Source: a virus
Length of the DNA: 64,000 nucleotides
Reading direction: 5' to 3' (one strand)
Virus record (IMG/VR): IMGVR_UViG_3300033183_000354
Coordinates: 32,001-96,000 of that record
Below are positions 1-36,832 of this stretch, piece after piece; positions within the stretch are counted from its first letter, which is position 1; each line of letters opens with the position of its first letter. Both the position numbers and the translations under genes were made by a program. Below the pieces are notes generated by a model that was given only the letters and a program-made list of their open reading frames with translations, did not search any database and was not told the DNA's origin.

Positions 1-9
1 ATTTCCGAC

Positions 10-399
10 ATGCACACTAAGTTTGGTGTCCGTGATTGGGTCGCCGGAGAATTGGAAAAAGGTGATTGGTCTAGACTTCAAAAGTTTATCGAATTTCGCC
101 TCAATTTTCTACAAGAAGAACTAGACGAGACAAGAGCAGCTGCTATTGTCGATAAAAATCCTGAAGAGATCGTTGATGGATTGATTGATTTATGCGTCGT
201 AGCTATTGGTACAATGGATGCCTTTGGTGTCGACGCCCATAAAGCATGGGACGCAGTACATAATGCTAATATGGCAAAAGAACGCGGTGTAAAAGAATCT
301 CGACCAAATCCACTTGGTCTACCAGATCTCATCAAACCTGAAGGTTGGCAAGGTCCAAGCCATAAGGATAATCATGGAAATCTCAATCACGCTCTTTAA
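10..399 (+). CDS. MazG-like / PRA-PH all-alpha NTP pyrophosphohydrolase (may start upstream of window)
   Basis: EELDE...EEIVDGLIDL acidic motifs, AVHNANMAK, KPEGW. Confidence 0.8.
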   Translation: MHTKFGVRDWVAGELEKGDWSRLQKFIEFRLNFLQEELDETRAAAIVDKNPEEIVDGLIDLCVVAIGTMDAFGVDAHKAWDAVHNANMAKERGVKESRPNPLGLPDLIKPEGWQGPSHKDNHGNLNHAL

Positions 400-1300
400 G
401 AGTGTATATGATAATAAGACACATCGACGAGTTGATCTCCCTGATTTCGACTCGTTCGAACGTGTCTTATATGATTTATCAAAGAAACCTCGGCAATCGA
501 AGAAAGATGCCGATTTAATGTCACCAGCCACTTACGAAAAGGGTACTACTCGTGCTAATCGTAACGTGGTCGAGTGGGCAGGATGGTGTGCAGTAGATGT
601 TGATGACTTTATTGTTGAAGGAGATCTAAAAGATGCTATCATTGAACGAACTGGTAATTGGCGTTTCGTGTGTTATTCTACTGCTAGTTCCAGTATCGAT
701 CTACCTAAGTTCAGACTTGTATTTCCACTTAAAAGAAAGTTATCGAATGACGAAATATCAAGTTTCAACTTTGCGCTACTTCAGTCCCTCGGCGGTATCG
801 GCGATGAACAAACAAAAGATCTTGCTCGTATGTATTATATACCTGCTGAGTATGCTGGCGCTTACAACTTTATCTTCTCTCATGATGGTGATCCTATTAA
901 TCCAGACACTCTGATGTCAAAATACCCTTATATCCAAAAGACGGGTACTAATTTCTTTGATCGCCTTCCTGAAGCTATGCAAAAGCAAATCATTGAACAT
1001 CGTAAATCTAAACTAGAAAATATTGATGTTCATTGGTCATCTTATCGAGATTGTCCTTTCTTTCCTCGACATCTCGAAAATGAGTATAGGTCTATTAGTA
1101 ATACCGGTTGGTATCATAAGATGTATCAGATCATGGTCGCCCTCGCTGGTAATGCTATTAAGAATGAATATCCAATTACCGCTAATGAGATCGCAGTCCT
1201 TTGTCGAGAGCTTGATATGGATACTGGTAATTGGTATGAGAATCGTCCATTAACGAAAGAAGCTGATAGAGCTCTCGAATACGTATATAAAAATATGTAA
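374..1300 (+). CDS. Primase-polymerase (AEP/RepB-like) protein
   Basis: AVDVDD metal motif, YSTAS...PKFRLVFPL, KDLARMYYIP; ATG 374 with AGGA RBS. Confidence 0.6.
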   Translation: MEISITLFKSVYDNKTHRRVDLPDFDSFERVLYDLSKKPRQSKKDADLMSPATYEKGTTRANRNVVEWAGWCAVDVDDFIVEGDLKDAIIERTGNWRFVCYSTASSSIDLPKFRLVFPLKRKLSNDEISSFNFALLQSLGGIGDEQTKDLARMYYIPAEYAGAYNFIFSHDGDPINPDTLMSKYPYIQKTGTNFFDRLPEAMQKQIIEHRKSKLENIDVHWSSYRDCPFFPRHLENEYRSISNTGWYHKMYQIMVALAGNAIKNEYPITANEIAVLCRELDMDTGNWYENRPLTKEADRALEYVYKNM

Positions 1301-1407
1301 AAAAATCACATCTGATTGTTTTTATTTGATAAAAAAATGCGTTTTTTTATTTACAAATGAATTTTTATAGTGTATATTATACCTATAATTAAAGAGGAGA
1401 ATACATT
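1298..1407 (+). promoter_or_regulatory. Early promoter cassette (repeat copy)
   Basis: AAAATCACATCTGATTGTTTT...AAAATGCGTTTTTT-TTTACA-N17-TATATT...AAAGAGGAG. Confidence 0.75.
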
Positions 1408-1692
1408 ATGAATAAACAAATTCCGCCACTTGTTGCTCTTAACTCTCTTGCCAAATCATTTTGGAACGAATATGTTTCTAATATTGGCATTGATGAAGAA
1501 GCTGCTGAGTATGCAGCCATGGATCGTAATGATATTCTCGATGTAAAAGCTCTCCTTATTGCTGGTGATACTAAAGCAATGGCTGCTAAGATTGAAGAAG
1601 TCGATACTTATATTCGCGAAGCTATCATTATCGCAATGATCGATGACATGGGTAAAGATTTCGTCCTTGAAACTACTGGTTATTATGTGTGA
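1408..1692 (+). CDS. Hypothetical early protein
   Basis: ORF with GAGGAG RBS directly after early promoter. Confidence 0.75.
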   Translation: MNKQIPPLVALNSLAKSFWNEYVSNIGIDEEAAEYAAMDRNDILDVKALLIAGDTKAMAAKIEEVDTYIREAIIIAMIDDMGKDFVLETTGYYV

Positions 1693-1699
1693 GGTTGTT

Positions 1700-1903
1700 A
1701 TGAAGACTCTTAAGATTGGTGATACTGTTATTTCTCGTCATGGTCCAGGAAAGATCACAAAGATCGAACTCTGTGAAAAACCTGGGTATAAGTATGGCAT
1801 CGACATCAAAGAGATCTATGTCGATCTTGTTGATCGCTGTGTATTTGATCTTGACAATGGCCATTTTGCATATGGTGATCAGATCGATTTTGTAGGAGTC
1901 TAA
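1700..1903 (+). CDS. Hypothetical small SH3-like protein
   Basis: GAGG RBS, LKIGDTV...HGPGKI. Confidence 0.65.
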   Translation: MKTLKIGDTVISRHGPGKITKIELCEKPGYKYGIDIKEIYVDLVDRCVFDLDNGHFAYGDQIDFVGV

Positions 1904-1904
1904 G

Positions 1905-2597
1905 ATGGATTTCCTAATTAAAGTAGGCGAATCATTTAGTTTAGCTGATATCGATTTAGATTGGCTAGAAAAACATACTGCTCTTGAATATGTAAATTTT
2001 TTACCAGATCCATATCGATCTGATACGCGTGTTTATAATGATACCTATAATGGTCTAGCAGCAGAGCACTATATGGTCGAAGAATATGGTTATACTAATG
2101 ATGACCGTAAATACAAAGATCTCTTTGCGCCATGTGGTACTTCTGTTGAAATTAAGTCTGGCTCTAGTGAAGAAACCATCCAAAAACATATAGAAACACT
2201 TACAGAAAGAAAAAGTTGGGGACCAAAATACGATATATCTGATTACGTAATATGCTTTCTTCGTGACAATAAAACTTACACGTGTCATTCGCTTTGGCAA
2301 TGGGATGGCAATAATTACGTAAAAGTAAAAGAAGAGCCAGAAGAAGATCGTACCGAAGTCATTCGTAAGCTTGAACGTATGCCTCTCGAAAAAGCTCGCC
2401 AAGTTGCCCTTCAATTGATGGAAGATTGGAATCCTCAAAAGATAGGTGGTAAAGCATCTAAAAATAGAACGATATATGATATCGAAACAGCGTGTACATC
2501 AGCCGATATTTGTGGTATAATGTACAGATTACAACTCGCTTATGAAGGTTTAGGTACTATTGGATCTTCATGGCAAAACCATTATAGGAATATCTGA
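1905..2597 (+). CDS. Putative PD-(D/E)XK nuclease-domain protein with extra C-terminal domain
   Basis: AAEHY...KDL...SVEIKS pattern. Confidence 0.45.
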   Translation: MDFLIKVGESFSLADIDLDWLEKHTALEYVNFLPDPYRSDTRVYNDTYNGLAAEHYMVEEYGYTNDDRKYKDLFAPCGTSVEIKSGSSEETIQKHIETLTERKSWGPKYDISDYVICFLRDNKTYTCHSLWQWDGNNYVKVKEEPEEDRTEVIRKLERMPLEKARQVALQLMEDWNPQKIGGKASKNRTIYDIETACTSADICGIMYRLQLAYEGLGTIGSSWQNHYRNI

Positions 2598-2956
2598 TGA
2601 AAGAGTCAATCAAAGTTTTACAAGAGTGTGCTGAACTGCAGACTAAAAAAGGTAATGACTATCAAAACGAATATTCTCGTATTAAACAAGCAGACTATTA
2701 TCCTAACGGTGTATCTACTCTGCTTGACATTAATCATGCAAAGATGCTTCGTATGCAATCTGTCGTATCTGCTATGATGGCCGATCCTAACTATGAGCCA
2801 AACTTTGAATCAATCGAAGATTCGGCTAAAGACATGATTAACTATTGTTCGTTTATCGTTGCTTATTGTCGTGGTAAGATGGATGGTCAAAATCCAAATC
2901 ACGACTTCCTTAATCGCCCAAAGAAAGTGAAAGATAATGCAGAACACAGTGAATGA
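2597..2956 (+). CDS. Nucleotide-modification-associated all-alpha protein (Nmad1/DUF1599-like)
   Basis: KKGNDY...K..R...ESIEDSAKDMINY; next to TS-fold gene. Confidence 0.65.
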   Translation: MKESIKVLQECAELQTKKGNDYQNEYSRIKQADYYPNGVSTLLDINHAKMLRMQSVVSAMMADPNYEPNFESIEDSAKDMINYCSFIVAYCRGKMDGQNPNHDFLNRPKKVKDNAEHSE

Positions 2957-3614
2957 TATTCGTCAGCATTTTATCAATGAATTGAAGAACGAAAACTTCA
3001 CTACTGATAAAACTGGCCAAAAAACAATTGAGATTATCGGTGCTTCTTTCGAAGCTAATGAACCAGCTATCTTTGGTACTCCTAATAAAGAATATATCGA
3101 TAAAGAAATTGATTGGTATTGTACAGGTAGTACTAATATCAATGACATCTATGGTGAAGAACGTGAACCACCTGAAGCATGGAAATATGCTGCTAATAAG
3201 TATGGTGAAGTTAATTCTAACTATGGCACATTGATCTTTGACGATATATACTATAGACAGTACGAAAACGTCCTTGACGAATTGGCAGGTTCCAATGATA
3301 CTACACGACGTGCTACAATGGTTTACAACCGACCAAGCATCTGGGCAGAGTTTCAGGCTGATGGTAAAAACGATTTTATTTGTACTAATGCTGTCACTTA
3401 CTATATACGCAATAATGAACTCCAAGCTGTTGTCCAAATGCGATCTAACGATGTCGTGTTCGGATATAAGAATGATTATGCTTGGCAGCGTTATGTAATG
3501 GAACTTATTTGTCAAGATCTAAGTGGTGGTAATACTACTTTGAAACCAGGCAAATTGATTTGGCAAGTTCAAAACTTGCATGTTTATGAAAGGCATTTCC
3601 ACCTTGTCAAATAA
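2937..3614 (+). CDS. 42: dCMP hydroxymethylase (T4 gp42-like, thymidylate synthase fold)
   Basis: DFICTN catalytic Cys; MRSNDVVFGYKNDYAWQ closely matches T4 gp42 MRSNDVVFGFRNDYAWQ with the dCMP-specifying Asp; NLHVYERH. Confidence 0.85.
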   Translation: MQNTVNDIRQHFINELKNENFTTDKTGQKTIEIIGASFEANEPAIFGTPNKEYIDKEIDWYCTGSTNINDIYGEEREPPEAWKYAANKYGEVNSNYGTLIFDDIYYRQYENVLDELAGSNDTTRRATMVYNRPSIWAEFQADGKNDFICTNAVTYYIRNNELQAVVQMRSNDVVFGYKNDYAWQRYVMELICQDLSGGNTTLKPGKLIWQVQNLHVYERHFHLVK

Positions 3615-4041
3615 GTGGGATAAGAGATACCTTGCGCTAGCAGAACAAGTCTCGAAGTGGTCCAAAGATCCATCTCGCCAAATTGGTGCAGTTGCGGTAG
3701 GATCGAAGGGACAGGTTCTCGCGCAAGGCTACAATGGTTTCCCTCGCGGGATTGATGATAATGAAGACCTATATAATGACCGCGAGGTAAAGTATAAGTA
3801 TGTAGTTCATGCAGAGATGAATGTTATTTATAATGCCACGTATAATGGTGTATCACTTGATGGTTCTACTCTGTATGTTTATGGTTTACCAGTCTGTAGC
3901 GATTGTGCCAAGGGCGTTATACAGGTTGGCATCAAAGGGGTTGTCATGCCAGAACAGTTAATCCCTGAACATTGGCAACCATCTTGGCAATTAACGAAAA
4001 AAATGTTTGAAGAAGCAGGAGTTTTATATGACTTTATTTAA
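3604..4041 (+). CDS. cd: dCMP deaminase
   Basis: SKDPS..IGA, GYNGFPRG, HAEMN, PVCSDC. Confidence 0.92.
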   Translation: MSNKWDKRYLALAEQVSKWSKDPSRQIGAVAVGSKGQVLAQGYNGFPRGIDDNEDLYNDREVKYKYVVHAEMNVIYNATYNGVSLDGSTLYVYGLPVCSDCAKGVIQVGIKGVVMPEQLIPEHWQPSWQLTKKMFEEAGVLYDFI

Positions 4042-4312
4042 CGGAAATAATGATACGGGTCCAGTATTTGAAAAAGGTTATCCAAAGCATGAAGGTTATG
4101 AAGAATATATGAAACGAAGAATGCGGGAAGAGGATATGAAGATGGAAAAAAATATTCCAGAAAAAGTCGATCGAGTCGTTGAGCGAATCATGTGGAAACT
4201 TGATCTCCTTGAAAAACGTATGAAGTCTGTAGAGACAGACGTCGCTTATATGCAAACATATCAACCAACAAGTCCAGAAGAAAAGAAGATCAAGGATTAT
4301 CTTAACAAATGA
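4028..4312 (+). CDS. Hypothetical coiled-coil protein
   Basis: Coupled ORF inside operon. Confidence 0.6.
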   Translation: MTLFNGNNDTGPVFEKGYPKHEGYEEYMKRRMREEDMKMEKNIPEKVDRVVERIMWKLDLLEKRMKSVETDVAYMQTYQPTSPEEKKIKDYLNK

Positions 4313-4734
4313 AATCTGTACTTGACTTCTTAGAAGGACATCAAATATCCGAGGACATCATCGTCCTCGGACAATGTCCATCGACCAAAACGACACCTTC
4401 TGTCAACGGCACATTTGCTCGCCTAAAACGATGGCTCTTGACAGTAGGTGTTCGTGATTGGGACTTTCATAATGTAATACCTCATAAGATCAATTCTTAT
4501 GATATCAAAGACGTTGACGTAGAGGCTTTACGTAAAGCTGTTGAAGGTAAGTCAATCGTTATCTCACTCGGAGGGTTTGTCGAAAGAGTATGTAAGAAAT
4601 ACTCTATAGATAATTACAAGATCGATCATCCATCTCCGAGAAATCGTAATCTCAATAGTATAGAATACGAAGCAGCAATGCTTCACAGTTTGAAGGAATA
4701 TCTTGATGAACATAGAGCTAACGGAATACTATGA
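4309..4734 (+). CDS. Uracil-DNA glycosylase superfamily protein
   Basis: IIVLGQCPS (motif A) and HPSPRN (motif B). Confidence 0.7.
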   Translation: MKSVLDFLEGHQISEDIIVLGQCPSTKTTPSVNGTFARLKRWLLTVGVRDWDFHNVIPHKINSYDIKDVDVEALRKAVEGKSIVISLGGFVERVCKKYSIDNYKIDHPSPRNRNLNSIEYEAAMLHSLKEYLDEHRANGIL

Positions 4735-5875
4735 TGACTTTCTTCGCTATTTTCATAAAGCGAAAGAACAACAGGTAAAATGTAACGTCGCAGACGTAGA
4801 ACCATATGGACTAATACCCCATATGGAGTCCGATATGGACGATGACCTTATGCATTATATTGAACTATATGACGTCGTCGAACGTAAATATGCCGGGTTT
4901 TCTCAAATCGTTAATGATTGTTGGTCAGGTTGGACAGAAGGCCATCCATATTGGAAGAAGATGGAGGCCGGTAAAGCAACATCTCAACGTGAGGTCGTTG
5001 CTAAAAACTGGACAGGCAAGCATAAAGAATTTGATCTACCTGAATGGTTGTACCTTTTTATCCTCCATCGTGTGACAGGTTCTGCGATTAATTATGGTAC
5101 TAAACCTTCGGGTTATCATAACACATTACTATTCACCCTTCATAAAGCGCGTACCATCGAAGAGATGATATGGCATATGAAGAGACATAAAGCCCCTTTC
5201 TATACTTCAATTGGCTATCAATTCCCTAAGTTTCCAAAACCTCAAGGAGACTACAAGAAGGGTGGAGACTACTACCTTGGTGAGTATGCGCCACGCCTAG
5301 CACGTGAGATGGCAGAATGGTTGCAAAAGACAAATAATAGAAAGGACCTTCGAGAGATCGGAGAGTTTATGGGTCAGTGGAATGAACGAAATGGTCTTAA
5401 CAGGTATACTTTTCAGTATGCAGCTGTTGTTGCTGATGTTGCTGATTGGTACCCTCAATACGTCAACAAGGAATCACCCTTTTATTACGGAACTAACGCT
5501 GTTGAGTGTATTAGCTACCTTGCTCGTCCTACAGAGCGTATGAAGAAAGAACAGTTTTTAGATCAGGTGATGGCCAAGATCTATGAAGATACGAAGTCAT
5601 ATCCGTATAATGCCGAAGACGTATGTTGTGACTATATCCGTTGGGTTGAAAACTATGTTCGACCAGGTGCACATTACTCTCACGTCGACCTTGATAAAAT
5701 TTGGTCATCAAGTAATATCAAGAACCATCCATTTGGTAGACAAAAGGCAATGTTAGAGATGGGCCTTGTCGAATCTTTTAACGGTCTAAAGCATCATCCT
5801 TCTGATGATATGATCATTAAAGCTGCTGGTATTGATGTTGAGGAATATAAAAGAAGATGTATAACGCTACACTAG
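4706..5875 (+). CDS. Putative amino-acid:DNA transferase (aGPT-PPase-like) 1
   Basis: C-terminal AEDVCCDYIRW resembles ExxxC motif; context next to hydroxymethylase and PLP enzyme. Confidence 0.55.
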   Translation: MNIELTEYYDDFLRYFHKAKEQQVKCNVADVEPYGLIPHMESDMDDDLMHYIELYDVVERKYAGFSQIVNDCWSGWTEGHPYWKKMEAGKATSQREVVAKNWTGKHKEFDLPEWLYLFILHRVTGSAINYGTKPSGYHNTLLFTLHKARTIEEMIWHMKRHKAPFYTSIGYQFPKFPKPQGDYKKGGDYYLGEYAPRLAREMAEWLQKTNNRKDLREIGEFMGQWNERNGLNRYTFQYAAVVADVADWYPQYVNKESPFYYGTNAVECISYLARPTERMKKEQFLDQVMAKIYEDTKSYPYNAEDVCCDYIRWVENYVRPGAHYSHVDLDKIWSSSNIKNHPFGRQKAMLEMGLVESFNGLKHHPSDDMIIKAAGIDVEEYKRRCITLH

Positions 5876-6846
5876 ATGACTTTATTGATCCAAACCCGCA
5901 TTCAATAGTATACGAAAATACAGTTACTCCTATCCTCAATAAGGGCAAAGTCACTAATCACTTACTTGAACCATGGTCTCTCGAAGAACGTATTCAAAAG
6001 TTCTTTGAGTTTTGTCGTGCCTATGACGTAAGAGAAGAACCGCTCCTTAAATCTAACCCTCAACAGTTTTCTCATCGTCTACATTGGGATGAAATGCCAT
6101 ATGTTGATGAGATGAAAGAAGAGAAAGACATCAAGCGACTTTTACATCATACTATCGTATGGTCATTTAGTAATGAACATTGGCTAACATTCAGGACACT
6201 TCGCGATCATGGCGTTGAAGCCATGAAAAAGAGGTTTGAAACAGAAAGACATGCTCGATCTGACCTCTTTCAAGTATATTATCCAAAGGGGACAGTAGTA
6301 AAAGACTGGTTGTGTAATGTACCTCAACAAATAGCCGAAGACTGCTACACAATGTTACAGTCAAATCGACCGCTTAAGATGATGGAGCTGGCATCAAAGC
6401 TTGAAGCTCATACGAAAAAGAAGTATGGCTTTCGTAACGTGATGTATCCATATAAGAACCTTTCTCGCCATATCGCGATGGCCCGACCTGACCTTGTTGA
6501 TCCAGAATCATGGGTCACCCCAGGTACACTCTCATTTTATGGTCTATGGCAAATATTTGGAGATAAGAATTTATTTGGTAAAACTAAATTCGAATTAGAT
6601 GAAAATACTGGTGACTATACTCCAGTTAATGCTCAAGCTATTGAGCTTGTACGCCAGTTTAGTGTTTTGGCCAAACATCCGGATAATCCAATGAAGAGGC
6701 AGTATAATATTAATATCGAAGATAAAGCTTGTATGTGGTGTAAACACCTCTTCATTAGTCATGGCGTCAAGTCGACCACGAAGAAGATCCCATACGAGTG
6801 GATTTATCCTCGAACATTTTCTCTAAAAAAGAGTTTACAATCCTAG
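5857..6846 (+). CDS. Putative amino-acid:DNA transferase (aGPT-PPase-like) 2
   Basis: IEDKACMWCKH = ExxxCxxxK; context. Confidence 0.5.
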   Translation: MYNATLDDFIDPNPHSIVYENTVTPILNKGKVTNHLLEPWSLEERIQKFFEFCRAYDVREEPLLKSNPQQFSHRLHWDEMPYVDEMKEEKDIKRLLHHTIVWSFSNEHWLTFRTLRDHGVEAMKKRFETERHARSDLFQVYYPKGTVVKDWLCNVPQQIAEDCYTMLQSNRPLKMMELASKLEAHTKKKYGFRNVMYPYKNLSRHIAMARPDLVDPESWVTPGTLSFYGLWQIFGDKNLFGKTKFELDENTGDYTPVNAQAIELVRQFSVLAKHPDNPMKRQYNINIEDKACMWCKHLFISHGVKSTTKKIPYEWIYPRTFSLKKSLQS

Positions 6847-6868
6847 GATAGTTTGGTATAATATACAC

Positions 6869-7810
6869 ATGTCACATGATAAGCATATTATTGATCATAT
6901 TAATAAGGACGTTGAGGTATTACGTTTACAAGGCGTAACGAATCGACATGAAGCAAAGCAATATTATTTAAGTTTAGCAGAAGGCTGGGAAGATCCAAAT
7001 CCTGATCCAGTCGTTAAGGAGTATGAAGGTGTTAGAGTCGTTCGAGATGATCTTATCACTGGTAGCAAAGTACGGGGTGGAGATCTTCTTATATCTCGTA
7101 TTAACCAACTTAATCTTGTTTATGTTCAGCCTCGTACAGGTCTTGCGGGCGTATCGCTCTTGGACGTGGCGAAGCGCCACGGAAAACGCGTTCGTCTTTT
7201 TATGCCAAGTTCAAAGAGAATCTCTCATCACCAGGCTTGCTGTATTGAGCGTGGTGCTGATTATGAGTTCCATCGCGTGGCTGCTATGCCAAATCTTAAT
7301 TCCATAGCAAAGAAATGGGCAGAACAAAACGAAGATTCATACTTCATCCCACTTGGATTAAAACATGAACTCGTAACAGCAGGCATCGTAAAGGCTGCAT
7401 CGAAGATACCAGAGCCACAAGAAGTGTGGACAGTCGTATCAACAGGTGTACTACATCGAGCACTTCAGATCGCATGGCCAAATGCTGAGTTCCATGCCGT
7501 CGCAGTCGCTCGTAATATGAAAGAAGGAGAAGTTGGTCATGGTAATATCATCTCTGCCCCAGAACCATTTACCACTTCTATTAAAAAAGGATTGCCTCCT
7601 TTCCCAACCATCGATACGTACGATGGAAAGGCGTGGAGATATATCCCTAAAAATACAGGCAGAGACATCTTATTTTGGAATGTAGGCACTGAACCAGTGC
7701 TCAATGACGAGTCTATATATGATAGGATAGACTCTTATAGAAGGTGGAAAAAAGATGAAGGTACTACTCACGAGCTTGGGACCAATCTCGAACAAAATAC
7801 ATTCGCATAA
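6869..7810 (+). CDS. PLP-dependent enzyme, fold type II (TrpB/cysteine synthase-like)
   Basis: VVRDDLITGSKVRG (PLP Lys), VVSTGVL, YDGKAW, FWNVG. Confidence 0.8.
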   Translation: MSHDKHIIDHINKDVEVLRLQGVTNRHEAKQYYLSLAEGWEDPNPDPVVKEYEGVRVVRDDLITGSKVRGGDLLISRINQLNLVYVQPRTGLAGVSLLDVAKRHGKRVRLFMPSSKRISHHQACCIERGADYEFHRVAAMPNLNSIAKKWAEQNEDSYFIPLGLKHELVTAGIVKAASKIPEPQEVWTVVSTGVLHRALQIAWPNAEFHAVAVARNMKEGEVGHGNIISAPEPFTTSIKKGLPPFPTIDTYDGKAWRYIPKNTGRDILFWNVGTEPVLNDESIYDRIDSYRRWKKDEGTTHELGTNLEQNTFA

Positions 7811-8774
7811 AGCAGCACAAGCAATCATTTATGCTGATCAGCTAAAAGAAGCAGGTCATGATGTGACGATTAACCTTGTTAGCAATAAGGTTTATGACTA
7901 TTCACCTTATGATGAAGTATACGTATATCATGGTTCTGATTGGAGTGGTAACCTTAATCTCTTCGGCGGTATCCAAGCATATCCAAATACAGAGTTTGTA
8001 AAAGCTTTGTCAGAGTATAAAGGTACCGTTAAATCCATCTTAATCGATTTTCCTGACTATGCAAGTATGTTTCAAGATCGCTTGAACAAAGCAAATTTAA
8101 CATGGGATGTCAATTTTGCAGCCTTGTCAGAGATGACTAAGGCAGAAGTCATCGATCCAAATATGATAAAACGATATCGTAATATTGCGTTTGGCGATAG
8201 TCATGCGATTAGCATGTACCGTCCCGGTTGGGAAAACGTATCAGTACCATTCTCTACTCTACATGGATCTATCAATCGAGGGTTTGAGACGTTTATCCCA
8301 GAAGGTGGTCAGTATGATAATATCGAGACTTATTTTGGTAACATTGATATTCGACATCACCTCTGTCGCTTTGATGATCCTATCGCTGAAGCAAAAAAAT
8401 TAGCAAAACGTTATATGGGTGAAGTTTCTCGTATAAGTAATAAGTATGAAGCGCACGTAAAGGTGTGGGAACCACTGCCAATCGAAAACGAATCTCGTAA
8501 AGTGCCAAAGACTGGTTGGTATAAAGGTACACCCTTCTATGGCACTTGGCAACAAAGGACCGACGTGCGTCAAGCTTTTATCGACTCACTTGAATGTGAT
8601 GTATATAGATGGACAGATAACTTGAAAAATCCGATCGGTGAGTTAGACTTTGAATATATGGAAAAACCTCAATCAATTCACTTATCAAGAGCTTCTTATC
8701 CTCATTGGCAAGGCCGACAGTGGACAGAAGAAGTAGTGTCTGAGGCAAATAGTCTAGATGAATTTTTTATGTAG
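7755..8774 (+). CDS. Two-domain protein: GT-B/Rossmann-like N-terminus plus SGNH-like domain
   Basis: MKVLLTS...LKEAGHDVTI; AFGDSHA; FGNIDIRHH; SIHLS. Confidence 0.45.
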   Translation: MKVLLTSLGPISNKIHSHKAAQAIIYADQLKEAGHDVTINLVSNKVYDYSPYDEVYVYHGSDWSGNLNLFGGIQAYPNTEFVKALSEYKGTVKSILIDFPDYASMFQDRLNKANLTWDVNFAALSEMTKAEVIDPNMIKRYRNIAFGDSHAISMYRPGWENVSVPFSTLHGSINRGFETFIPEGGQYDNIETYFGNIDIRHHLCRFDDPIAEAKKLAKRYMGEVSRISNKYEAHVKVWEPLPIENESRKVPKTGWYKGTPFYGTWQQRTDVRQAFIDSLECDVYRWTDNLKNPIGELDFEYMEKPQSIHLSRASYPHWQGRQWTEEVVSEANSLDEFFM

Positions 8775-8787
8775 GAGATAATAATAT

Positions 8788-9831
8788 ATGTCTATTATGG
8801 ATAAATTGAAGAAGAATAGTAAGGTTAAAGAGTCTTCTGTTCTTTCTGATTCCAAATTCTTTACCGAAAAGGATATGGTAAAGACCGAAGTGCCAATGAT
8901 TAACGTGGCATTGTCGGGTTCCGTGGATGGCGGACTTGCGCCAGGACTAACAGTACTAGCTGGCCCATCCAAACATTTTAAGACCTCATTCGCTTTGATC
9001 ATGGCATCTGCATATCTCAAAGAGCACGATGATGCTGTGTTACTTTTTTATGATTCAGAATTTGGTTCACCACAATCATATTTTGAAAACTTTGATATCG
9101 ATACGAGTCGAGTCCTTCATACGCCTATTACAAACGTAGAAGAACTTAAGTTTGATATCATCGCTCAACTCGAAGAGTTGGATCGTAATGATAAGGTAGT
9201 AATTGTAATCGATTCTGTTGGCAACTTAGCATCAAAGAAAGAACTCGAAGATGCTATTAATGAAAAGTCAGTTGCTGATATGTCTCGAGCAAAAGCGCTA
9301 AAGGGTTTGTTCCGTATGTGTACACCATACTTGAACATGAAGAATATCCCGTTGATTGCCGTGAACCATACTTATATGGAGATTGGTCTATTTCCAAAAG
9401 CAGTTGTGTCAGGTGGTACTGGCATCTATTATTCAGCAGATAATATTTGGATTCTCGGTCGTCAACAGGATAAACAAGGCACTGAGATCAAAGGTTATCA
9501 TTTCGTGATTAATGTGGAGAAATCGCGTTATGTCAAAGAAAAGTCTAAGATTCCCATCAGTGTTAGTTGGGAAGGTGGAGTACAAAAGTGGTCTGGTCTG
9601 CTTGACGTTGCTCTCGAGGGTCAATATGTCACTAAGCCGTCTAATGGCTGGTATTGCAGGGTTAGCCGGGAAACTGGTGAACTACTTGAACCAAAAGTAC
9701 GAGAAAAACAAACTTTAGAAGCAGAATTTTGGGAACCAATCTTTGCTGAAACGGATTTCAAAGATTATTTGAAGAATCGTTTTTCAATCTTAAACCAAAA
9801 AGGTATTGAAGATGTCGCAGAAGTTAGTTGA
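8788..9831 (+). CDS. uvsX: UvsX RecA-like recombinase
   Basis: GPSKHFKT Walker A, FYDSEFG, SVADMSRAK, VVSGGTG. Confidence 0.97.
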   Translation: MSIMDKLKKNSKVKESSVLSDSKFFTEKDMVKTEVPMINVALSGSVDGGLAPGLTVLAGPSKHFKTSFALIMASAYLKEHDDAVLLFYDSEFGSPQSYFENFDIDTSRVLHTPITNVEELKFDIIAQLEELDRNDKVVIVIDSVGNLASKKELEDAINEKSVADMSRAKALKGLFRMCTPYLNMKNIPLIAVNHTYMEIGLFPKAVVSGGTGIYYSADNIWILGRQQDKQGTEIKGYHFVINVEKSRYVKEKSKIPISVSWEGGVQKWSGLLDVALEGQYVTKPSNGWYCRVSRETGELLEPKVREKQTLEAEFWEPIFAETDFKDYLKNRFSILNQKGIEDVAEVS

Positions 9832-10114
9832 ACTGAAAGACTATGAACTCATCCCAGCAGAGGATGATGATCAAGCTTGGGCGGTTCGAGTCGTGACAGG
9901 TGACTATGTTGAAACTGTACTTCGTTTTGGAGCTATTGCTATCAAAGAAGATGGTATAATGACTTTTAACTTTACGGTCGTGTCATCTCCTAACCCAGAC
10001 CTTACAAGCGAAGACGTGGATCTACAAGAATACGCCGGAGATTTGTTGCAAGCCATCATCGTAGATGGCATTGAATCTGGTTCAATAATTACAAAGGAGA
10101 GAGATGATGAGTAG
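9812..10114 (+). CDS. Hypothetical, positional equivalent of T4 gp40
   Basis: Small acidic ORF between uvsX and 41. Confidence 0.5.
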   Translation: MSQKLVELKDYELIPAEDDDQAWAVRVVTGDYVETVLRFGAIAIKEDGIMTFNFTVVSSPNPDLTSEDVDLQEYAGDLLQAIIVDGIESGSIITKERDDE

Positions 10115-10271
10115 TAAAACTTCAGAGATTGATCGTATTGTTATGTTAATGGAAGAGATTGCATATGCTAAATCACAGCTGCAACCTCATGATACTGGTC
10201 ATATCCATACGGCAATTAATTGGATGCAATCTCGAGTTGATAGTATCAAAGAAAAATTAAAAAAAGAATAG
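10107..10271 (+). CDS. Small hypothetical protein (54 aa, not in ORF track)
   Basis: MSSKTSEIDRIV...PHDTGHIHTAINWM; AGGAG RBS. Confidence 0.7.
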   Translation: MSSKTSEIDRIVMLMEEIAYAKSQLQPHDTGHIHTAINWMQSRVDSIKEKLKKE

Positions 10272-10329
10272 TTTACTTTGTTAGAGAAATATGATATAAT
10301 ACAATTATCTAACAAAAAAGGATACATTC

Positions 10330-11697
10330 TTGCAAGCGAACATTGAACAAACCATCCTTCGTAATCTTCTGACTGATGAAGAGTATATGCGTAAAGTATT
10401 GCCTTTCATTAAGTCAGATTATTTTCAAGGCACATATAAAACCCTCTTTAAAGAAGCGGGCAAATATGTTGGTAAGTATAATAAACTACCAACTACTGAG
10501 TCTCTTGTCATTGAACTACAAGAGACAAGTAATATGTCAGATGAACAGTTTCAAATGTCAATGGATATTATTCCACAACTGTTTACTCGTGAGCCTATTG
10601 ATAATGATTGGCTACTTGATGCCACCGAAAAATGGTGTCAAGATCGCGCATTGTATAATGCTGTAATGGAGTCTATCTCTATTATTGATGGTAAACATGA
10701 ATCTTTGACAAAGAATGCTCTTCCTGATATTTTATCAAAAGCTCTTGGCGTTTCATTTGATAAAAACATTGGTCACGACTATATTGAAAATGTTGAAGAA
10801 CGCTATGAGTTTTATCATACAGAAGAAGATCGAATCCCATTTGATCTAGAATACTTTAATAATATCACGAAAGGTGGAGTACCACGTAAAACATTGAACA
10901 TTGCTCTTGCTGGTACAGGTGTCGGTAAATCTCTGTTTATGTGTCATGTGGCTGCATCTGCCTTAGTCGAAGGACGTAATGTTCTCTACATAACAATGGA
11001 GATGGCAGAAGAACGTATCGCTGAACGTATCGACGCCAATCTTCTAAACGTACCTATCGATCAACTTGAGAATATGTCAAAGGATATGTTTACGACTAAA
11101 GTACATAACCTCGCAAAAAAGACAACAGGTAAACTAATCATTAAAGAATACCCGACTGGCTCAGCGCATGCTGGTCACTTTAGAGCACTGCTCAATGAAT
11201 TAAAATTAAAGAAACAATTCGAACCAGATATTATCTTTATTGATTATCTTAATATCTGTGCTTCTTCTCGTATGAAAGGAATGGGTGGTGCTATTAATTC
11301 TTATAACTATATCAAGGCCATTGCCGAAGAACTTCGAGGCCTTGCTGTGGAATTTGATATACCTGTTTTCTCTGCAACTCAAACTAATCGCAGTGGATAT
11401 TCGAATTCTGATGTTGGTCTTGAAGATACATCTGAAAGCTTTGGCCTTCCGGCTACTGCAGATTTAATGTTTGCTCTTATCTCTACAGAAGAGCTAGAGC
11501 AATCAGGTCAAATGATGGTTAAACAATTAAAGAATAGATATAATGATCCTACGCATAATAAACGTTTTGTGATTGGTGTTGATCGATCGAAGATGAGACT
11601 CTTTGATGCTGACGAAAATGAACAGACTTTAACTGATGATACGCCTGCATTTGATAATGGCAAGATTAATGAAAGATTTAAGGAGTTTAAATTATGA
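10330..11697 (+). CDS. 41: Replicative DNA helicase (T4 gp41)
   Basis: AGTGVGKS, ITMEMAEE, IDYLNI, SESFGLPATAD, QLKNRY. Confidence 0.97.
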   Translation: MQANIEQTILRNLLTDEEYMRKVLPFIKSDYFQGTYKTLFKEAGKYVGKYNKLPTTESLVIELQETSNMSDEQFQMSMDIIPQLFTREPIDNDWLLDATEKWCQDRALYNAVMESISIIDGKHESLTKNALPDILSKALGVSFDKNIGHDYIENVEERYEFYHTEEDRIPFDLEYFNNITKGGVPRKTLNIALAGTGVGKSLFMCHVAASALVEGRNVLYITMEMAEERIAERIDANLLNVPIDQLENMSKDMFTTKVHNLAKKTTGKLIIKEYPTGSAHAGHFRALLNELKLKKQFEPDIIFIDYLNICASSRMKGMGGAINSYNYIKAIAEELRGLAVEFDIPVFSATQTNRSGYSNSDVGLEDTSESFGLPATADLMFALISTEELEQSGQMMVKQLKNRYNDPTHNKRFVIGVDRSKMRLFDADENEQTLTDDTPAFDNGKINERFKEFKL

Positions 11698-12116
11698 GTG
11701 AATCCGATATTAAATTAGACTATGAGGTAGCTAGAGAAATTACTGTACAATTTATTACAAATATGTTGGATAATGATGCTCTACCTGAAGGACGTGAAAT
11801 TGACTTTATGATGGCATGTCAGGAAGTGCTTCATTTCATTATGCTTCCAGAAGAATGGGAAAAAAGATTTGATAGAAATTTCCTCGAATATTCAACAGGG
11901 CCTCGTAAAGTAGATACAGATGATGCTAGTTTATATCATACATTTTGGGGTGAAGGAGAATATGATGATCGATCGGCTTTTGTAAAGATAAATGATAAAG
12001 GCTTCTTTGTTGAGATGTGGAGTAATACAGAGCTTGTTGAGACTAGACCTCTATATGAATATAGTGAGACTTATGCAGAGAATTGTGCAGAGAATTGGGT
12101 AATCGGAGTAATTTGA
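11694..12116 (+). CDS. Hypothetical protein
   Basis: Coupled ORF. Confidence 0.65.
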   Translation: MSESDIKLDYEVAREITVQFITNMLDNDALPEGREIDFMMACQEVLHFIMLPEEWEKRFDRNFLEYSTGPRKVDTDDASLYHTFWGEGEYDDRSAFVKINDKGFFVEMWSNTELVETRPLYEYSETYAENCAENWVIGVI

Positions 12117-12117
12117 T

Positions 12118-12351
12118 ATGTTGATTGAGATAATTGAATATAACGAAGATAGTGATGGTGGTGCTACAGTAACAATAGATATTGATGAAGAAGGTAAAAC
12201 TTTTCTCATAGAAAAAGGTTTTAACAGTCTTCTCGAAAATGCAATCGAGAAAATGAAATCTGATATGGCACTTGTTGAATTAGTCAAATCTGCTCAAGAA
12301 GATGGTGATTATGAACCTATCGTTGATCAAGAGCAAAAGTTCTCTTTTTAA
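12118..12351 (+). CDS. Hypothetical acidic protein
   Basis: GGAG RBS. Confidence 0.65.
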   Translation: MLIEIIEYNEDSDGGATVTIDIDEEGKTFLIEKGFNSLLENAIEKMKSDMALVELVKSAQEDGDYEPIVDQEQKFSF

Positions 12352-12361
12352 GGTATAAATC

Positions 12362-13024
12362 ATGAAAGCAAGATTAATTAGTTATAGTCAACCACCAAAG
12401 GACGGTCTCTATGTCGGTGACAATATCCAAGAACTTATCGCGTATTGCGCCCGTGTATCGAATCCCTCGAACCAAGATAACACGGAAACCTCAGAAAAAC
12501 TACTACGATATCTCATTAGAGAAAAACACTGGTCGCCATTTGAAATGGTTAGCGCTTGCTTAGAGATCGAAACAACTCGAGATATCGCAAGACAATTACT
12601 TCGACATCGTTCATTCTCTTTTCAAGAATTCTCTCAGCGATATGCAGATCCTACTCAAGATCTTCAATTTGAATTCAAAGAAGCTAGACTTCAAGACACG
12701 AAAAATAGACAAAATAGTTTAGATGTTAAAGACGTAGATTTACAGCTTGAATGGCTTAAGCAACAATCAGAAGTAGTAGTAAGAGCAAGAGAAAGTTATG
12801 AATGGGCAATTGAAAATGGTATCGCTAAAGAACAAGCTAGGGCAGTTTTGCCAGAAGGTATTATGCAATCTCGACTCTATGTTAATGGCACCATCAGGTC
12901 CTGGATCCATTATATCGAATTACGTTCAGGCCATGGAACACAAAAAGAACACATTCAGCTAGCCAAAGCTTGTGCTGACGCTATTGAACCTATCTTTCCG
13001 ATGATCAGAGAATTTTGTCATTAA
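12362..13024 (+). CDS. thyX: Flavin-dependent thymidylate synthase
   Basis: HWSPFE, RHRSFSFQEFSQRY, KEQARAVLP. Confidence 0.97.
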   Translation: MKARLISYSQPPKDGLYVGDNIQELIAYCARVSNPSNQDNTETSEKLLRYLIREKHWSPFEMVSACLEIETTRDIARQLLRHRSFSFQEFSQRYADPTQDLQFEFKEARLQDTKNRQNSLDVKDVDLQLEWLKQQSEVVVRARESYEWAIENGIAKEQARAVLPEGIMQSRLYVNGTIRSWIHYIELRSGHGTQKEHIQLAKACADAIEPIFPMIREFCH

Positions 13025-13130
13025 AAAATTACATCTAATTGTTTTTATTAAATAAAAAAATGCGTTTTTTTGTGTACATTCTTCTTAAATTGGGGTATTA
13101 TATATCTATAATCAAAGAGGAGTTAAGATT
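13024..13130 (+). promoter_or_regulatory. Early promoter cassette (repeat copy)
   Basis: Near-identical to 62061-62166 and 1298-1407. Confidence 0.75.
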
Positions 13131-13283
13131 ATGTTTAAGTTTGTTATTACTGCTAAGATGGAAAATGGCGAAGCATGGGAAACCGTACGTCATACCAAGC
13201 AAGGCCTTGATGAAGTTATCTCAAACATCTTAAAGGATAAAGCTGTAGTTTCATTCTCTGTTGAAGAGAAGAAATATGCTTAA
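13131..13283 (+). CDS. Small early protein (50 aa, not in ORF track)
   Basis: MFKFVITAKMENGEAWETV...; GAGGAG RBS. Confidence 0.7.
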   Translation: MFKFVITAKMENGEAWETVRHTKQGLDEVISNILKDKAVVSFSVEEKKYA

Positions 13284-13779
13284 GCGTATCTTAATGACAG
13301 CATGCACTGTTATGTCAATGAGTGCAGCAGCAGAAGCTGCAGATTTCAATGATGAAATGAAGTGCATGGCTGATAACATGTATTGGGAATCACGTAATCA
13401 ATCTTTTCGTGGTTTAATTGCGGTTGGTAATGTAGTCATGAATCGAGTTGCCGATTCACGTTATCCTAATACTATTTGTGAAGTAGTTAAACAAGGACCT
13501 GAGATTAAGTCTTGGAAGTCTGGTGAATATTTTCCAAAGCGTGACCGGTGTCAGTTCTCTTGGTACTGTGATGGGAAGTCAGATGAGATTCCGGAAGTGG
13601 ATGCTAATCTTTATGAATATGTTCGTGCATTAGCAGTTAAAGTTTCAGATGGTTTCTTTGGTGATATTACCGGTGGTGCTACACATTATCATGCTTATTA
13701 TGTTAGACCAGATTGGGCAGAGACAAAAACACCTACTGCTCGTGTAGATGCTCATATTTTTTACAGGTGGGAAAAATGA
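13276..13779 (+). CDS. SleB-like cell wall hydrolase (Hydrolase_2) with signal peptide
   Basis: YWESRNQ, AVGNVVMNRV, CQFSWYCDG, GATHYHA. Confidence 0.9.
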   Translation: MLKRILMTACTVMSMSAAAEAADFNDEMKCMADNMYWESRNQSFRGLIAVGNVVMNRVADSRYPNTICEVVKQGPEIKSWKSGEYFPKRDRCQFSWYCDGKSDEIPEVDANLYEYVRALAVKVSDGFFGDITGGATHYHAYYVRPDWAETKTPTARVDAHIFYRWEK

Positions 13780-14141
13780 TTATAGAATTTGATAAAGATG
13801 ATTACAATGGCATTGACTATAAGTTCAATGAAGATATTCTGATTGAAGAGTTTCAAGAATATATTGACTCAACATATAGTGGTCATTATTCAAAGGATAA
13901 TTTTCAAGCTACTGAATTTATTATCGATGGTGGTCATGGTACGGGTTTCTGTATTGGAAATGTTCTTAAGTACGCGCAGCGTTACGGGAAGAAAGGCTCG
14001 CGCGAAGACGCTCGGAAGGACTTAATGAAGGTTTTGCACTATGCTCTGATTCAGCTTTATGTGCATGACTCTGAGCCTGATGTGGAGGAAGAGATTTTGC
14101 TTTATCGTGGTGAGAAAATCGGTTCAAGCGCAGATTCATAA
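13776..14141 (+). CDS. DUF3310-like (T7 gp1.7 nucleotide kinase-like) protein
   Basis: HY...GFCIGNVLKYAQRYGKK...DLMKVLHY. Confidence 0.75.
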   Translation: MIIEFDKDDYNGIDYKFNEDILIEEFQEYIDSTYSGHYSKDNFQATEFIIDGGHGTGFCIGNVLKYAQRYGKKGSREDARKDLMKVLHYALIQLYVHDSEPDVEEEILLYRGEKIGSSADS

Positions 14142-35438: not shown

Positions 35439-36026
35439 ATGGGATTATTAAAAAGAGCAGCAGATCTAACATACGCGTTTCGGTTCGTTCGCATGCTCGT
35501 TCTTGATTGGAAAGAATGGGATGCCTATAAACTAGGTATTATTGACGAAAACGGAAAACGAAAAAAAGAAGAGAAGCTAGATACAGATGAAAAAAAGTCT
35601 GCTTATACTCCTTTTATTAGGCTCTGCGCCAATATTAAAAGGCTGCTCAGCAAACTCCCGGGAGGAGGTAGCAAACTCGGGTCATTTGCCTCAGCTTTGT
35701 ATCTCATTAAGGAAAAATATTCCCTATCTGATAATAAGCTTAGAAAAATCCTGTCTGAAGCAGGATGTGACACATTAGATTTTTTGATCGAAGAAAATAA
35801 ATGGTTCGTACTAGAAGATAAACAACTTTCTCCGGGAATCTATCGTGTTTATAATCCTAAGCTACTTAATAGTTCATGTGAAGAGATGGTCTTCGCAAAG
35901 GATCAAGTTAGGGTTGAAGATAATGCTTATCCTATTGGTGATATCTTTGGGATTGATGTGTATAAAGCGACTCATGTGAATACGAATCAAAAGGTTTTCA
36001 TTACAGCTAGCGAGATTTACAAATGA
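35439..36026 (+). CDS. Conserved phage hypothetical protein
   Basis: DAYKLGIIDENG. Confidence 0.75.
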   Translation: MGLLKRAADLTYAFRFVRMLVLDWKEWDAYKLGIIDENGKRKKEEKLDTDEKKSAYTPFIRLCANIKRLLSKLPGGGSKLGSFASALYLIKEKYSLSDNKLRKILSEAGCDTLDFLIEENKWFVLEDKQLSPGIYRVYNPKLLNSSCEEMVFAKDQVRVEDNAYPIGDIFGIDVYKATHVNTNQKVFITASEIYK

Positions 36027-36832
36027 GATCAGAATGTATAGAAGAAGGGGTGAATGATCCCGCAATCTTTAAAGCTGTATTCCTCGCTGGTGGTCCTGGA
36101 TCTGGTAAATCATTTATCGTAGGTAAAACAGCACTTACTGCTCTTGGTATGAAAGTAATTAACTCGGATGATGCTTTTGAGCGTGGACTCAAGAATGCTG
36201 GTTTAGAGATGACTCCAGATAATATCTACTCACCAAAAGGTCAAGATATTCGTTCTCGCGCAAAAGCTCTTACAAAGAGTAAACAGCAAGGCTATATTGC
36301 TGGTCGTCTTGGAATGGTTATTGATGGAACAGGTAAAGATTATAATGAGATTATAAAACAAGCAACTGCTTTAAGAAAACTTGGTTATGATATAGCAATG
36401 ATTTTTGTTAATACCGACAAAGAAACCGCACTTAATCGTAATCGGATGAGAGCGCGTTCTCTTCCTGATACTGAAGTATCAAAGATGTGGAAAGATGTTC
36501 AAAAGAATTTGGGTAGGTTTCAGATCTTCTTTAAAAACTTTTTTATTATAGATAACTCTGAAGGTTCTGACTATAATAATCAAGTACTAGATGTTTATAG
36601 AAAAATGGCAGCTTGGACTAAAGTAACTCCTAAAAATAGAGCAGTTACTTCTTGGATGAAAGCACAAAAAATAAACGAGGAAATGACTACTACAGCGGCT
36701 ATTCCAAATCCTGCATTAACTGCTATGGGACCAAGAATTAAAACGATAAATGTAACTGATCGTCGTCGTAAGAAGGATAAAATCCCGGTTCTTTTAAAAC
36801 GATTTAGAAAATATATGGACGACAATGCTTAG
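36023..36832 (+). CDS. Zeta-toxin-like / AAA_33 P-loop kinase
   Basis: AGGPGSGKS, INSDD, VIDGTG, RN..R.R. Confidence 0.8.
   Translation: MRSECIEEGVNDPAIFKAVFLAGGPGSGKSFIVGKTALTALGMKVINSDDAFERGLKNAGLEMTPDNIYSPKGQDIRSRAKALTKSKQQGYIAGRLGMVIDGTGKDYNEIIKQATALRKLGYDIAMIFVNTDKETALNRNRMRARSLPDTEVSKMWKDVQKNLGRFQIFFKNFFIIDNSEGSDYNNQVLDVYRKMAAWTKVTPKNRAVTSWMKAQKINEEMTTTAAIPNPALTAMGPRIKTINVTDRRRKKDKIPVLLKRFRKYMDDNA

Follow-up and report, generated by a model that had tools for sequence, protein, structure and literature searches.

A candidate kinase-free route to hypermodified 5-hydroxymethylcytosine in an uncultured marine T4-like phage

Which base does a phage make when it encodes a T4-type dCMP hydroxymethylase directly beside relatives of the enzymes that build hypermodified thymidines? 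The question is raised by a 64,000-nucleotide stretch of DNA (hereafter the window) from the IMG/VR virus record IMGVR_UViG_3300033183_000354, which covers bases 32001-96000 of the complete 152,719-bp genome, with terminal repeats, of an uncultured marine T4-like phage. A tight same-strand operon at positions 2597-8774, inside the replication module, had been picked out from the letters alone (the sequence-only reading) as a hybrid cluster pairing a cytosine-type hydroxymethylase with thymidine-hypermodification-type enzymes, and this pairing is borne out by two proteins resembling amino-acid:DNA transferases (AADTs) and aGPT-Pplase proteins and by a pyridoxal phosphate (PLP) enzyme of the M6 gp52 type. 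We consider it reasonably probable that the cluster carries out a kinase-free, post-replicative hypermodification of 5-hydroxymethylcytosine (5-hmC) in phage DNA, and this DNA would probably carry a decorated cytosine without prior chemical description. Ten open reading frames (ORFs) lie between positions 1905 and 8774, all on the plus strand and with overlapping or abutting starts and stops; the genes that had been listed were found where they had been placed, as follows (aa, amino acids).

2597..2956, plus strand: 119-aa helical protein, possibly Nmad1/DUF1599 (MazG-like NTP pyrophosphatase-type), just upstream of gene 42
2937..3614, plus strand: dCMP hydroxymethylase, T4 gp42 orthologue (PF00303, 1e-15)
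3580..4041, plus strand: dCMP deaminase, T4 cd-type (PF00383, 2e-18; phrog_174, 6e-44; zinc motifs HAEMN and PVCSDC)
4007..4312, plus strand: 101-aa ORF without functional assignment, between cd and the UDG-like gene
4309..4734, plus strand: small protein like the uracil-DNA glycosylase (UDG) superfamily, 141 aa (motif A GQCPS, motif B HPSPRN)
4703..5875, plus strand, likely start ATG at 4706: 390-aa AADT-like protein of helix-hairpin-helix (HhH)-glycosylase fold, with near-invariant E305-D306-x-x-C309-D310
5857..6846, plus strand: 329-aa distant paralogue of the 390-aa protein, with invariant E288-D289-K-x-C292
6869..7810, plus strand: fold-type II PLP enzyme, M6 gp52 family (phrog_7093, 4e-40; K67 the putative aldimine lysine)
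7755..8774, plus strand: 339-aa 'GDSH' protein, with an N-terminal Rossmann-like domain (~1-135) and an SGNH esterase/acyltransferase domain (~139-319)
8751..8771, plus strand: C-terminal tail of the GDSH protein, SLDEFFM, a T4-type sliding-clamp (gp45) binding motif by its likeness to the gp43 tail

The hydroxymethylase and the base that enters DNA

The gp42 homologue had been read as carrying the Asp that specifies dCMP, and it does: phmmer aligned it with T4 dCMP hydroxymethylase (1b49/1b5e, E 3e-70, residues 4-224 against 7-225), it shares 52% identity with T4 gp42, and its active-site strings NDFICTN and MRSNDVVFGYKNDYAWQ follow the same pattern as SDFMCTN and MRSNDVVFGFRNDYAWQ of T4. In many T4-like phages the thymidylate synthase (TS) homologue at the gene-42 position produces 5-hydroxy-dCMP, as described in a 2026 paper (PMC13326640), which names four diagnostic positions in ThyA numbering: the catalytic Cys, N177, L143 and D169. 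Asp at N177 marks the choice of dCMP, Asp or Glu at L143 gives water access and a hydroxymethyl product, and Asn at the D169 position marks a 5-hydroxy-dCMP synthase (PMC13326640). The window enzyme keeps the catalytic Cys and has Asp, as T4 does, at all three other positions (N177, L143 and D169, the last not being Asn), so that it should produce hydroxymethyl-dCMP (hm-dCMP), and neither 5-hydroxy-dCMP nor hydroxymethyl-dUMP (hm-dUMP). A role as 5-hydroxy-dCMP synthase was rejected by the criterion of PMC13326640, Asp being kept at D169. The resemblance to the 5-hydroxycytosine arabinosylation of RB69 and DLP3 is that of a T4-like phage in which a TS homologue at the gene-42 position would feed a non-glucose cytosine hypermodification; the RB69/DLP3 homologues have Asn at D169 and yield 5-hydroxy-dCMP, whereas the window enzyme has Asp and its cassette is without sugar-nucleotide or arabinosyltransferase genes (PMC13326640).

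The genes of the replication module that bear on nucleotide supply and gene order are the following.

314-1300: gp61-type primase
8788-9831: UvsX, directly after the cassette
10330-11697: gp41 helicase
12362-13024, plus strand: ThyX (PF02511, 3e-42), a separate thymidylate synthase 8 kb downstream of gp42/cd

The dCMP deaminase, with its HAE and PCxxC motifs, and the separately encoded ThyX had both been recognized correctly. ThyX being present, the gp42 homologue is not required for dTMP synthesis, and gp42, cd and ThyX together match the T4 pyrimidine gene set (42, cd and td, with td replaced by ThyX). T4 DNA contains normal thymine and 5-hmC; with the T4 pyrimidine scheme in place, 5-hmC rather than 5-hydroxymethyluracil (5-hmU) is expected to enter the DNA of this phage. 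Predicted synthesis of hm-dCMP within a T4-like pyrimidine scheme is the part of the pathway that the sequence comparisons establish most directly.

The gene order in T4 is 42, beta-gt, segA, uvsX, 40, 41, and that in the window is 42, cd, 101-aa ORF, 141-aa, 390-aa, 329-aa, PLP, GDSH, uvsX, 102-aa ORF, 41. By this comparison the cassette occupies the slot, between 42 and uvsX, of the T4 5-hmC-specific beta-glucosyltransferase. The likeness to T4 glucosylation, in which gp42 is followed by alpha- and beta-glucosyltransferase, thus extends from an orthologous gp42 to the order 42-modifier-uvsX-41 and probably to a modifier with a beta-gt-like N-terminal half; unlike T4, the window cassette is without a glycosyltransferase or a UDP-glucose-binding GT-B C-terminal half and has five genes of amino-acid-type chemistry in the slot.

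The 119-aa protein just upstream of gene 42 had been called Nmad1-like. The ORF is there and holds the genome's sole match to PF07659 (DUF1599), in the right frame, the signal itself being weak (E 0.064, 11.5 bits against a cut-off of 25); it also matches phrog_1485 (1e-12) and phrog_18404 'hydrolase' (8e-11), shows no similarity to T4 gp56 and is found upstream in 36 of the 47 related loci described below. It may be a pyrophosphatase, and a role in removing dCTP would be only a guess.

The transferase-like proteins and the PLP enzyme

In the thymidine hypermodification of M6, ViI and PaMx11, a dUMP hydroxymethylase is combined with a kinase (PF18748) and a helical protein (PF18723), a transferase (PF18724; PUGT, 8z2m) and a PLP decarboxylase, gp52 or gp226 (PMC8989533, PMC5889632, PMC11472151). 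The window cluster resembles these systems in that a TS-fold hydroxymethylase would supply the 5-CH2OH pyrimidine, a paralogous pair of HhH-glycosylase-fold proteins carries Glu-x-x-x-Cys, the PLP enzyme shares its PHROG with M6 gp52, and some genomes fuse the helical domain with the enzyme standing at the activator's place. It differs in the cytosine specificity of its hydroxymethylase, in being carried by a T4-like myovirus and in having no radical-SAM, FAD or acetyltransferase tailoring gene.

We propose that the 390-aa protein is a DNA 5-hmC group transferase. It had no sequence match in Pfam, PHROG, NCBIfam or the PDB, and phmmer and hmmsearch of the 390-aa, 329-aa, PLP, GDSH and 119-aa proteins or profiles against PDB sequences gave nothing useful. 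Its AF2 model (pLDDT 95) found its best structural match, by VIA-align, in the amino-acid:DNA transferase PaMx11 gp46, and shows the two-helix-bundle HhH-glycosylase-like fold of PUGT. The HhH-glycosylase/aGPT fold that had been expected for this protein is thus supported by the model comparison and only thinly by Foldseek, whose HhH-glycosylase rows were weak and did not include PUGT. In PUGT (structure 8z2m) Cys247 clamps the flipped base and Glu243 is used, and mutation of the Cys or the Glu abolishes the activity of M6 gp51 and ViI gp247 (PMC8989533). The two ExxxC motifs that had been noticed in the window proteins are well conserved: an alignment of 60 diverse sequences of the 390-aa family has H122-R-x-T-G-S, D245, G263-x-N265 and E305-D-x-x-C309-D310 near-invariant (E305 in 59/60, C309 in 58/60), and E288 and C292 are invariant in the 329-aa family. 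An E-x-x-x-C-x-aromatic string stands at the same relative place in M6 gp51 (VETVLCKW), M6 gp55 (IEHTLCEF), the 390-aa protein (EDVCCDY) and the 329-aa protein (EDKACMW). The 390-aa family is abundant, with 106 IMG/VR loci and 949 homologues in a 90%-identity protein collection, along with 145 clusters at 50% identity.

Direct BLASTP between the 390-aa and 329-aa proteins was not significant, and the two families are linked by profiles only (hhalign probability 91.6%, E 8e-7, with VDPxS, G-T-x and EDxxC aligned). Their paralogy mirrors the paralogous pairs known among aGPT-Pplase proteins (PMC8989533), and the 329-aa protein, which some relatives do without, is proposed to be either an accessory partner of the clade-1 kind or a second transferase. 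Its neighbours in a language-model atlas fall in clusters with PF18723 or PF18724, PF18723 being found in 14-36% of the members, and a single member of the 60 in the 390-aa family matches PF18724 (ADDT; E 0.001). Since the fold and the ExxxC motif are shared and the links to Pfam profiles are weak, both helical proteins are treated as remote members of the aGPT-Pplase/HhH superfamily, probably AADT-like in action and lying outside PF18724 and PF18723.

The fold-type II PLP enzyme, correctly named as such beforehand, belongs by sequence to a family of DNA-acting decarboxylases. phrog_7093, the PHROG that M6 gp52 itself matches at 2e-159, covers its full length (residues 26-273 aligned with 7-278 of 279), and BLASTP aligns the window enzyme directly with M6 gp52 (E 2e-6), K67 standing opposite K36 of gp52; its match to PF00291 (PALP) reached 19.7 bits, below the cut-off of 35. 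M6 gp52 decarboxylates amino-acid:thymine conjugates in DNA, and K36 is its proposed aldimine lysine (PMC8989533). Homologues with 33-35% identity to the cassette enzyme occur elsewhere, in one case as a domain within an 812-aa protein of Erythrobacter phage ZS04 (gene 7, L087:2326-4764) that also contains an N6/N4 DNA-methylase segment and in the other as a 236-aa protein beside ParB/methylase genes in Microcystis phage Mae-JY30 (L088:5992-6702); these may belong to other PLP-dependent DNA modification systems, and their fusion to or position next to DNA methylase-like genes indicates DNA as the substrate.

Linkage was counted in 48 related IMG/VR loci whose sequence continues for 4 kb or more past the 390-aa gene, upstream counts being out of 47. 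Downstream of the 390-aa gene, GDSH was found in 48/48 loci, the PLP gene in 45/48 and the 329-aa gene in 36/48; nine of the 48 loci had only the 390-aa, PLP and GDSH genes, and three only the 390-aa and GDSH genes. Upstream, gp42 was present in 39/47 loci and the deaminase absent in 18/47, and all five near-complete relatives carrying the cassette have gp42 (5/5). The linkage of the cassette genes is not due to chance. Moreover, at least seven representative proteins (640-790 aa) are fusions with GDSH N-terminal to a 390-type domain. GDSH homologues also occur in cultured phages, namely three of Tenacibaculum, two of Stenotrophomonas and a number of T4-like Aeromonas phages that include 31, 44RR2.8t and 25. 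The homologue of Aeromonas phage 31 forms the N-terminal third of the 795-aa protein ORF233c, whose C-terminal part has a weak PF18723 match and the motif CEIACCQF; hhalign detected no link between the C-terminal half and the 390-aa family. The Aeromonas phages bearing this fusion encode gp42, and gp42 and Alc have been reported for them (PMC2771037). Directly upstream of the fusion gene, Aeromonas phage 31 has a 507-aa sodium:solute symporter (ORF234c, L081:4408-5931; PF00474, 7e-53; closest NCBIfam PRK10484/YidK-type), which might import the attached group.

The characterised AADT and PLP relatives all act on 5-hmU, and the cluster could accordingly be read as a 5-hmU system in which the deaminase turns hm-dCMP into hm-dUMP and the base is decorated as in M6 and ViI, with an unusual activation. 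The sequence-only reading had left this route standing beside hypermodification of 5-hmC; the evidence favours the latter and makes the hm-dUMP route improbable. The position of the deaminase gene directly after gene 42 and the presence of a UDG-like gene in the cluster suit a 5-hmU target. Against it, gp42, cd and a separate thymidylate synthase are the set of a phage with normal thymine and hmC, ThyX is encoded, the 18 loci counted above have no deaminase upstream whereas gp42 is nearly always there, and the cassette lies in the slot of the hmC-specific beta-gt. In addition, the residue after the catalytic Glu is Asp in 52/60 of the 390-aa family and invariably Asp in the 329-aa family, compared with Thr or His in the thymine enzymes, which might recall the Asn-to-Asp switch of TS.

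The name UDG-like, given beforehand to the 141-aa protein, has weak support, from its conserved motifs, from its atlas neighbours (24/30 in clusters with PF03167, with UDG in 18-33% of cluster members) and from a faint Pfam UDG match (E 0.22) across the whole model. Motifs A and B are conserved in an alignment of 21 homologues, motif A reading GINPS, GLNPA or GQAPS in relatives, and the gene was present in 20 of the 47 loci with enough upstream sequence. The position of the family-1 catalytic Asp in motif A is held by Cys in most members, by Asn (GINPS, GLNPA) or by Ala, and Asn is the MUG/SMUG state. SMUG-type enzymes excise 5-hmU, so that proofreading against hmU is a possible role, and in the 5-hmC pathway that we favour the protein may police uracil or hmU.

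The GDSH protein and the activation step

Foldseek found the SGNH fold in the GDSH protein, and residues 139-319 fall within the SGNH/GDSL hydrolase superfamily. All four SGNH blocks are conserved (the invariant G147-D148-S149-H150, G171, G195-N-I-D198 and H309), for which reason the domain is probably catalytic. The N-terminal 135 residues contain invariant S17-H18 and G65-x-x-N68-L-F-G-G72, and hhalign aligned this domain with residues 1-101 of T4 beta-glucosyltransferase (P 1.6e-4 at 51%; 5e-5 at 68%), LNLFGG standing opposite INFFGG; a fused relative (P0212) has a weak PF09198 match (E 0.078) in the same region. PDB hmmsearch and the Foldseek lists did not recover this link (searched against BFVD, the GDSH model retrieved SGNH proteins and homologues, and the top 50 included no beta-gt), and we therefore hold with moderate confidence that the domain resembles the DNA-binding (acceptor) half of the T4 enzyme. 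The C-terminal UDP-glucose-binding Rossmann domain of beta-gt has no counterpart in GDSH, the SGNH fold standing there instead.

The gp43 tail is the element by which the T4 polymerase binds the gp45 clamp. The tail of GDSH (SLDEFFM) resembles that of the phage's own gp43 (TLDEFFG) and of T4 gp43 (SLDFLFG), a tail of the form [ST]L[ED]xFF ends most GDSH homologues, and only 3/865 frames of the genome have a clamp-type tail, namely the polymerase, GDSH and a 71-codon frame. By this likeness GDSH is probably clamp-tethered and acts on newly made DNA. The tail also bears on whether the genes past gp42 and cd concern base modification at all, or constitute a nucleotide-pool or small-molecule pathway, an anti-defence module or a set of repair glycosylases. 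Such roles seem very improbable: the polymerase-like tail indicates action on DNA, the best fold match of the 390-aa protein is a DNA base transferase with a shared catalytic motif, the PLP family is proven to act on DNA and has homologous domains in or beside DNA methylase-like proteins (Erythrobacter and Microcystis phages), and the cassette is strictly linked to gp42 in the beta-gt slot.

No P-loop kinase is present in the cluster 2597-8774, as had been observed from the sequence, and the whole 152.7-kb genome is without PF18748 (5-hmdU DNA kinase), PF18723 or PF18724. Even at E values up to 10, PF18748 was found neither in this genome nor in five 83-99% complete relatives bearing the cassette, and these five relatives have no AAA_33-type kinase above the cut-off, nor was PF18723 or PF18724 found in them. 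Unlike M6, ViI and PaMx11, the window phage appears to have a probably clamp-tethered SGNH enzyme with a beta-gt-like N-terminal domain in the kinase's place. In the canonical systems the gene for the clade-1 helical protein (M6 gp55, PaMx11 gp50) adjoins the kinase gene, and kinase::helical-domain fusions gave PF18723 its name as the kinase's helical domain. The SGNH enzyme is the adjacent or fused partner here as the kinase is there, and this is the main reason for placing it at the activation step; the different activation chemistry that had been suspected fits an SGNH-fold protein that is always linked to, and elsewhere fused with, the transferase-like protein.

The only P-loop kinase of the window is listed here.

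36023-36832: 269-aa P-loop kinase (AAA_33, 2e-10; Zeta_toxin, 6e-10; phrog_12810)

It was rejected as the missing DNA kinase, being absent from the five cassette-bearing relatives and present in Pelagibacter phage HTVC008M and the Methylophilales Melnitz phages, in which the search of the phage collection with the 390-aa protein gave no match. It has a very basic C-terminal tail and is common to HTVC008M, the Melnitz phages and Agrobacterium phage Atu_ph07.

On these grounds the cassette appears to act on 5-hmC in DNA after replication, through Cys-dependent transferase-like and PLP enzymes. GDSH would ride the sliding clamp by its polymerase-like tail and would bind or flip 5-hmC with its beta-glucosyltransferase-like domain. 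Its Ser-His centre might then act on the 5-CH2OH, most likely by an acylation that turns the hydroxyl into a leaving group, the job done in thymidine hypermodification by ATP and the 5-hmdU DNA kinase. In the 390-aa enzyme, Cys309 would attack C6 with the assistance of Glu305, the leaving group would be expelled with formation of an exocyclic methylene, and a small nucleophile would be added. This would probably be an amino acid joined through its side chain, because a PLP enzyme can work only on a free alpha-amine and a radical-SAM isomerase is lacking. The M6 gp52-type PLP enzyme would trim the adduct, probably by decarboxylation, and, given the lack of that isomerase, our best guess at the product is a cytosine of ViI-like, aminoethoxymethyl type, for instance 5-(2-aminoethoxy)methylcytosine. 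The 329-aa paralogue would serve as the accessory partner or second transferase already mentioned. The scheme in full, in which a clamp-tethered SGNH enzyme with a glucosyltransferase DNA-binding half acylates 5-hmC in duplex DNA in place of phosphorylation and so gives rise to a new amino-acid-derived cytosine, common among T4-like phages of marine and fresh waters as well as cultured Aeromonas phages, is put forward tentatively, as a possibility that falls short of probable.

The same pathway could run with the SGNH enzyme in another place, either as an esterase that acts late, to deprotect or trim an intermediate linked by an ester, or, in two-gene systems, as the maker of an acyl ester on 5-hmC that is itself the final mark, the 390-type domain only flipping the base in the manner of a kinase helical domain. 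Most SGNH proteins are hydrolases, minimal systems of GDSH and a 390-type protein exist as two genes (L057, L058, L065, L077 and L079) or as a fused protein (Aeromonas phages), and PF18723-type helical proteins are kinase partners whose catalytic role is unproven, all of which suits such an arrangement. We think it rather unlikely, as the Glu/Cys pair that is catalytic in AADTs is near-invariant over the 60 diverse sequences of the 390-aa family, the nine loci with 390-aa, PLP and GDSH genes and without the 329-aa gene imply that the 390-aa protein must do the transferase step, and the fusions place the enzyme domain ahead of the helical one, an order that suits coupled consecutive steps.

Several points weigh against the proposed kinase-free pathway on 5-hmC, beside the failure of database searches to recover the beta-gt link. 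Neither helical protein reaches the threshold of PF18724 (ADDT) or PF18723 (HMUDK_hel), the families of their thymine counterparts; hhalign of the helical families against single AADT sequences (gp46, gp51) or a two-sequence alignment was not significant, and against an alignment of M6 gp55 and PaMx11 gp50 it was weak (P 0.006 for the 390-aa and 0.024 for the 329-aa family), with colinear motifs. SGNH enzymes are for the most part hydrolases, and the source of an acyl group is not apparent. Nucleophiles can be joined to unactivated 5-hmC by C5-methyltransferases, so that an activation step may be unnecessary. Unlike T4, the genome has no detected homologue of gp1 (hm-dCMP kinase) or gp56 (dCTPase), which bears on how hm-dCTP would be made and dCTP excluded. 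Finally, what is said here of the base, of its donor and of the part played by the SGNH domain is deduced from the genes of an uncultured phage.

To our knowledge, the characterised non-sugar pyrimidine hypermodifications on the 5-hydroxymethyl group are all on thymine and all need a DNA kinase. A literature search, which did not cover all journals, found no gp42-linked, kinase-free, SGNH-coupled system, no amino-type 5-hmC derivative in a phage and no SGNH protein in DNA hypermodification. The nearest precedent is that of metavirome clusters with TET and C5-methyltransferase genes, in which a P-loop kinase and aG/PT-PPlase were proposed to act on TET-made 5-hmC (Burke et al., PMC8256090). The idea of aGPT-Pplase-type enzymes working on 5-hmC in DNA is common to both; in those clusters 5-hmC arises after replication, by methyltransferase and TET, and the P-loop kinase is kept, whereas in the window phage 5-hmC would be made before replication by gp42 and the kinase would be replaced. 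If our scheme is true, it extends thymine-type chemistry to cytosine, replaces the kinase by an enzyme of esterase/acyltransferase fold and couples the first step to the replication clamp, and the base would, given the abundance of the cassette, be a major feature of aquatic viral DNA and would matter for the evasion of restriction and CRISPR, for bias in the sequencing of viromes and for enzymes as tools of 5-hmC chemistry. The question is directly testable, cultured carriers being at hand (the T4-like Aeromonas phages 31, 44RR2.8t and 25, Tenacibaculum phage PTm1 and Stenotrophomonas phages).

Neighbouring genes and minor observations

No match to the region was found by megablast, or to the 390-aa protein by tblastn, among 50,697 phage records, and at the DNA level the phage thus has no close relative in culture. 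The T4 late-promoter motif TATAAATA does not occur on the plus strand at positions 1-14000, and this might faintly suggest early or middle expression. The 101-aa ORF at 4007-4312 has no family match and is not conserved, with 0/80 related loci matched by tblastn. The gene directly upstream of the cassette is as follows.

1905-2597, plus strand: 230-aa ORF

It has no family match in Pfam, PHROGs or NCBIfam, and tblastn matched it in only ~10/80 related loci. Farther downstream, the ORF at 13713-14141, itself without a P-loop, gives a match to phrog_480 (6e-29) and fainter ones to C-terminal portions of several 'nucleotide kinase' PHROGs. The 71-codon frame that shares the clamp-type tail ends in TLDKLFL and lies 21.3 kb past the end of the window (genome C1:117311-117526); it might encode a gp33-like late-transcription co-activator.

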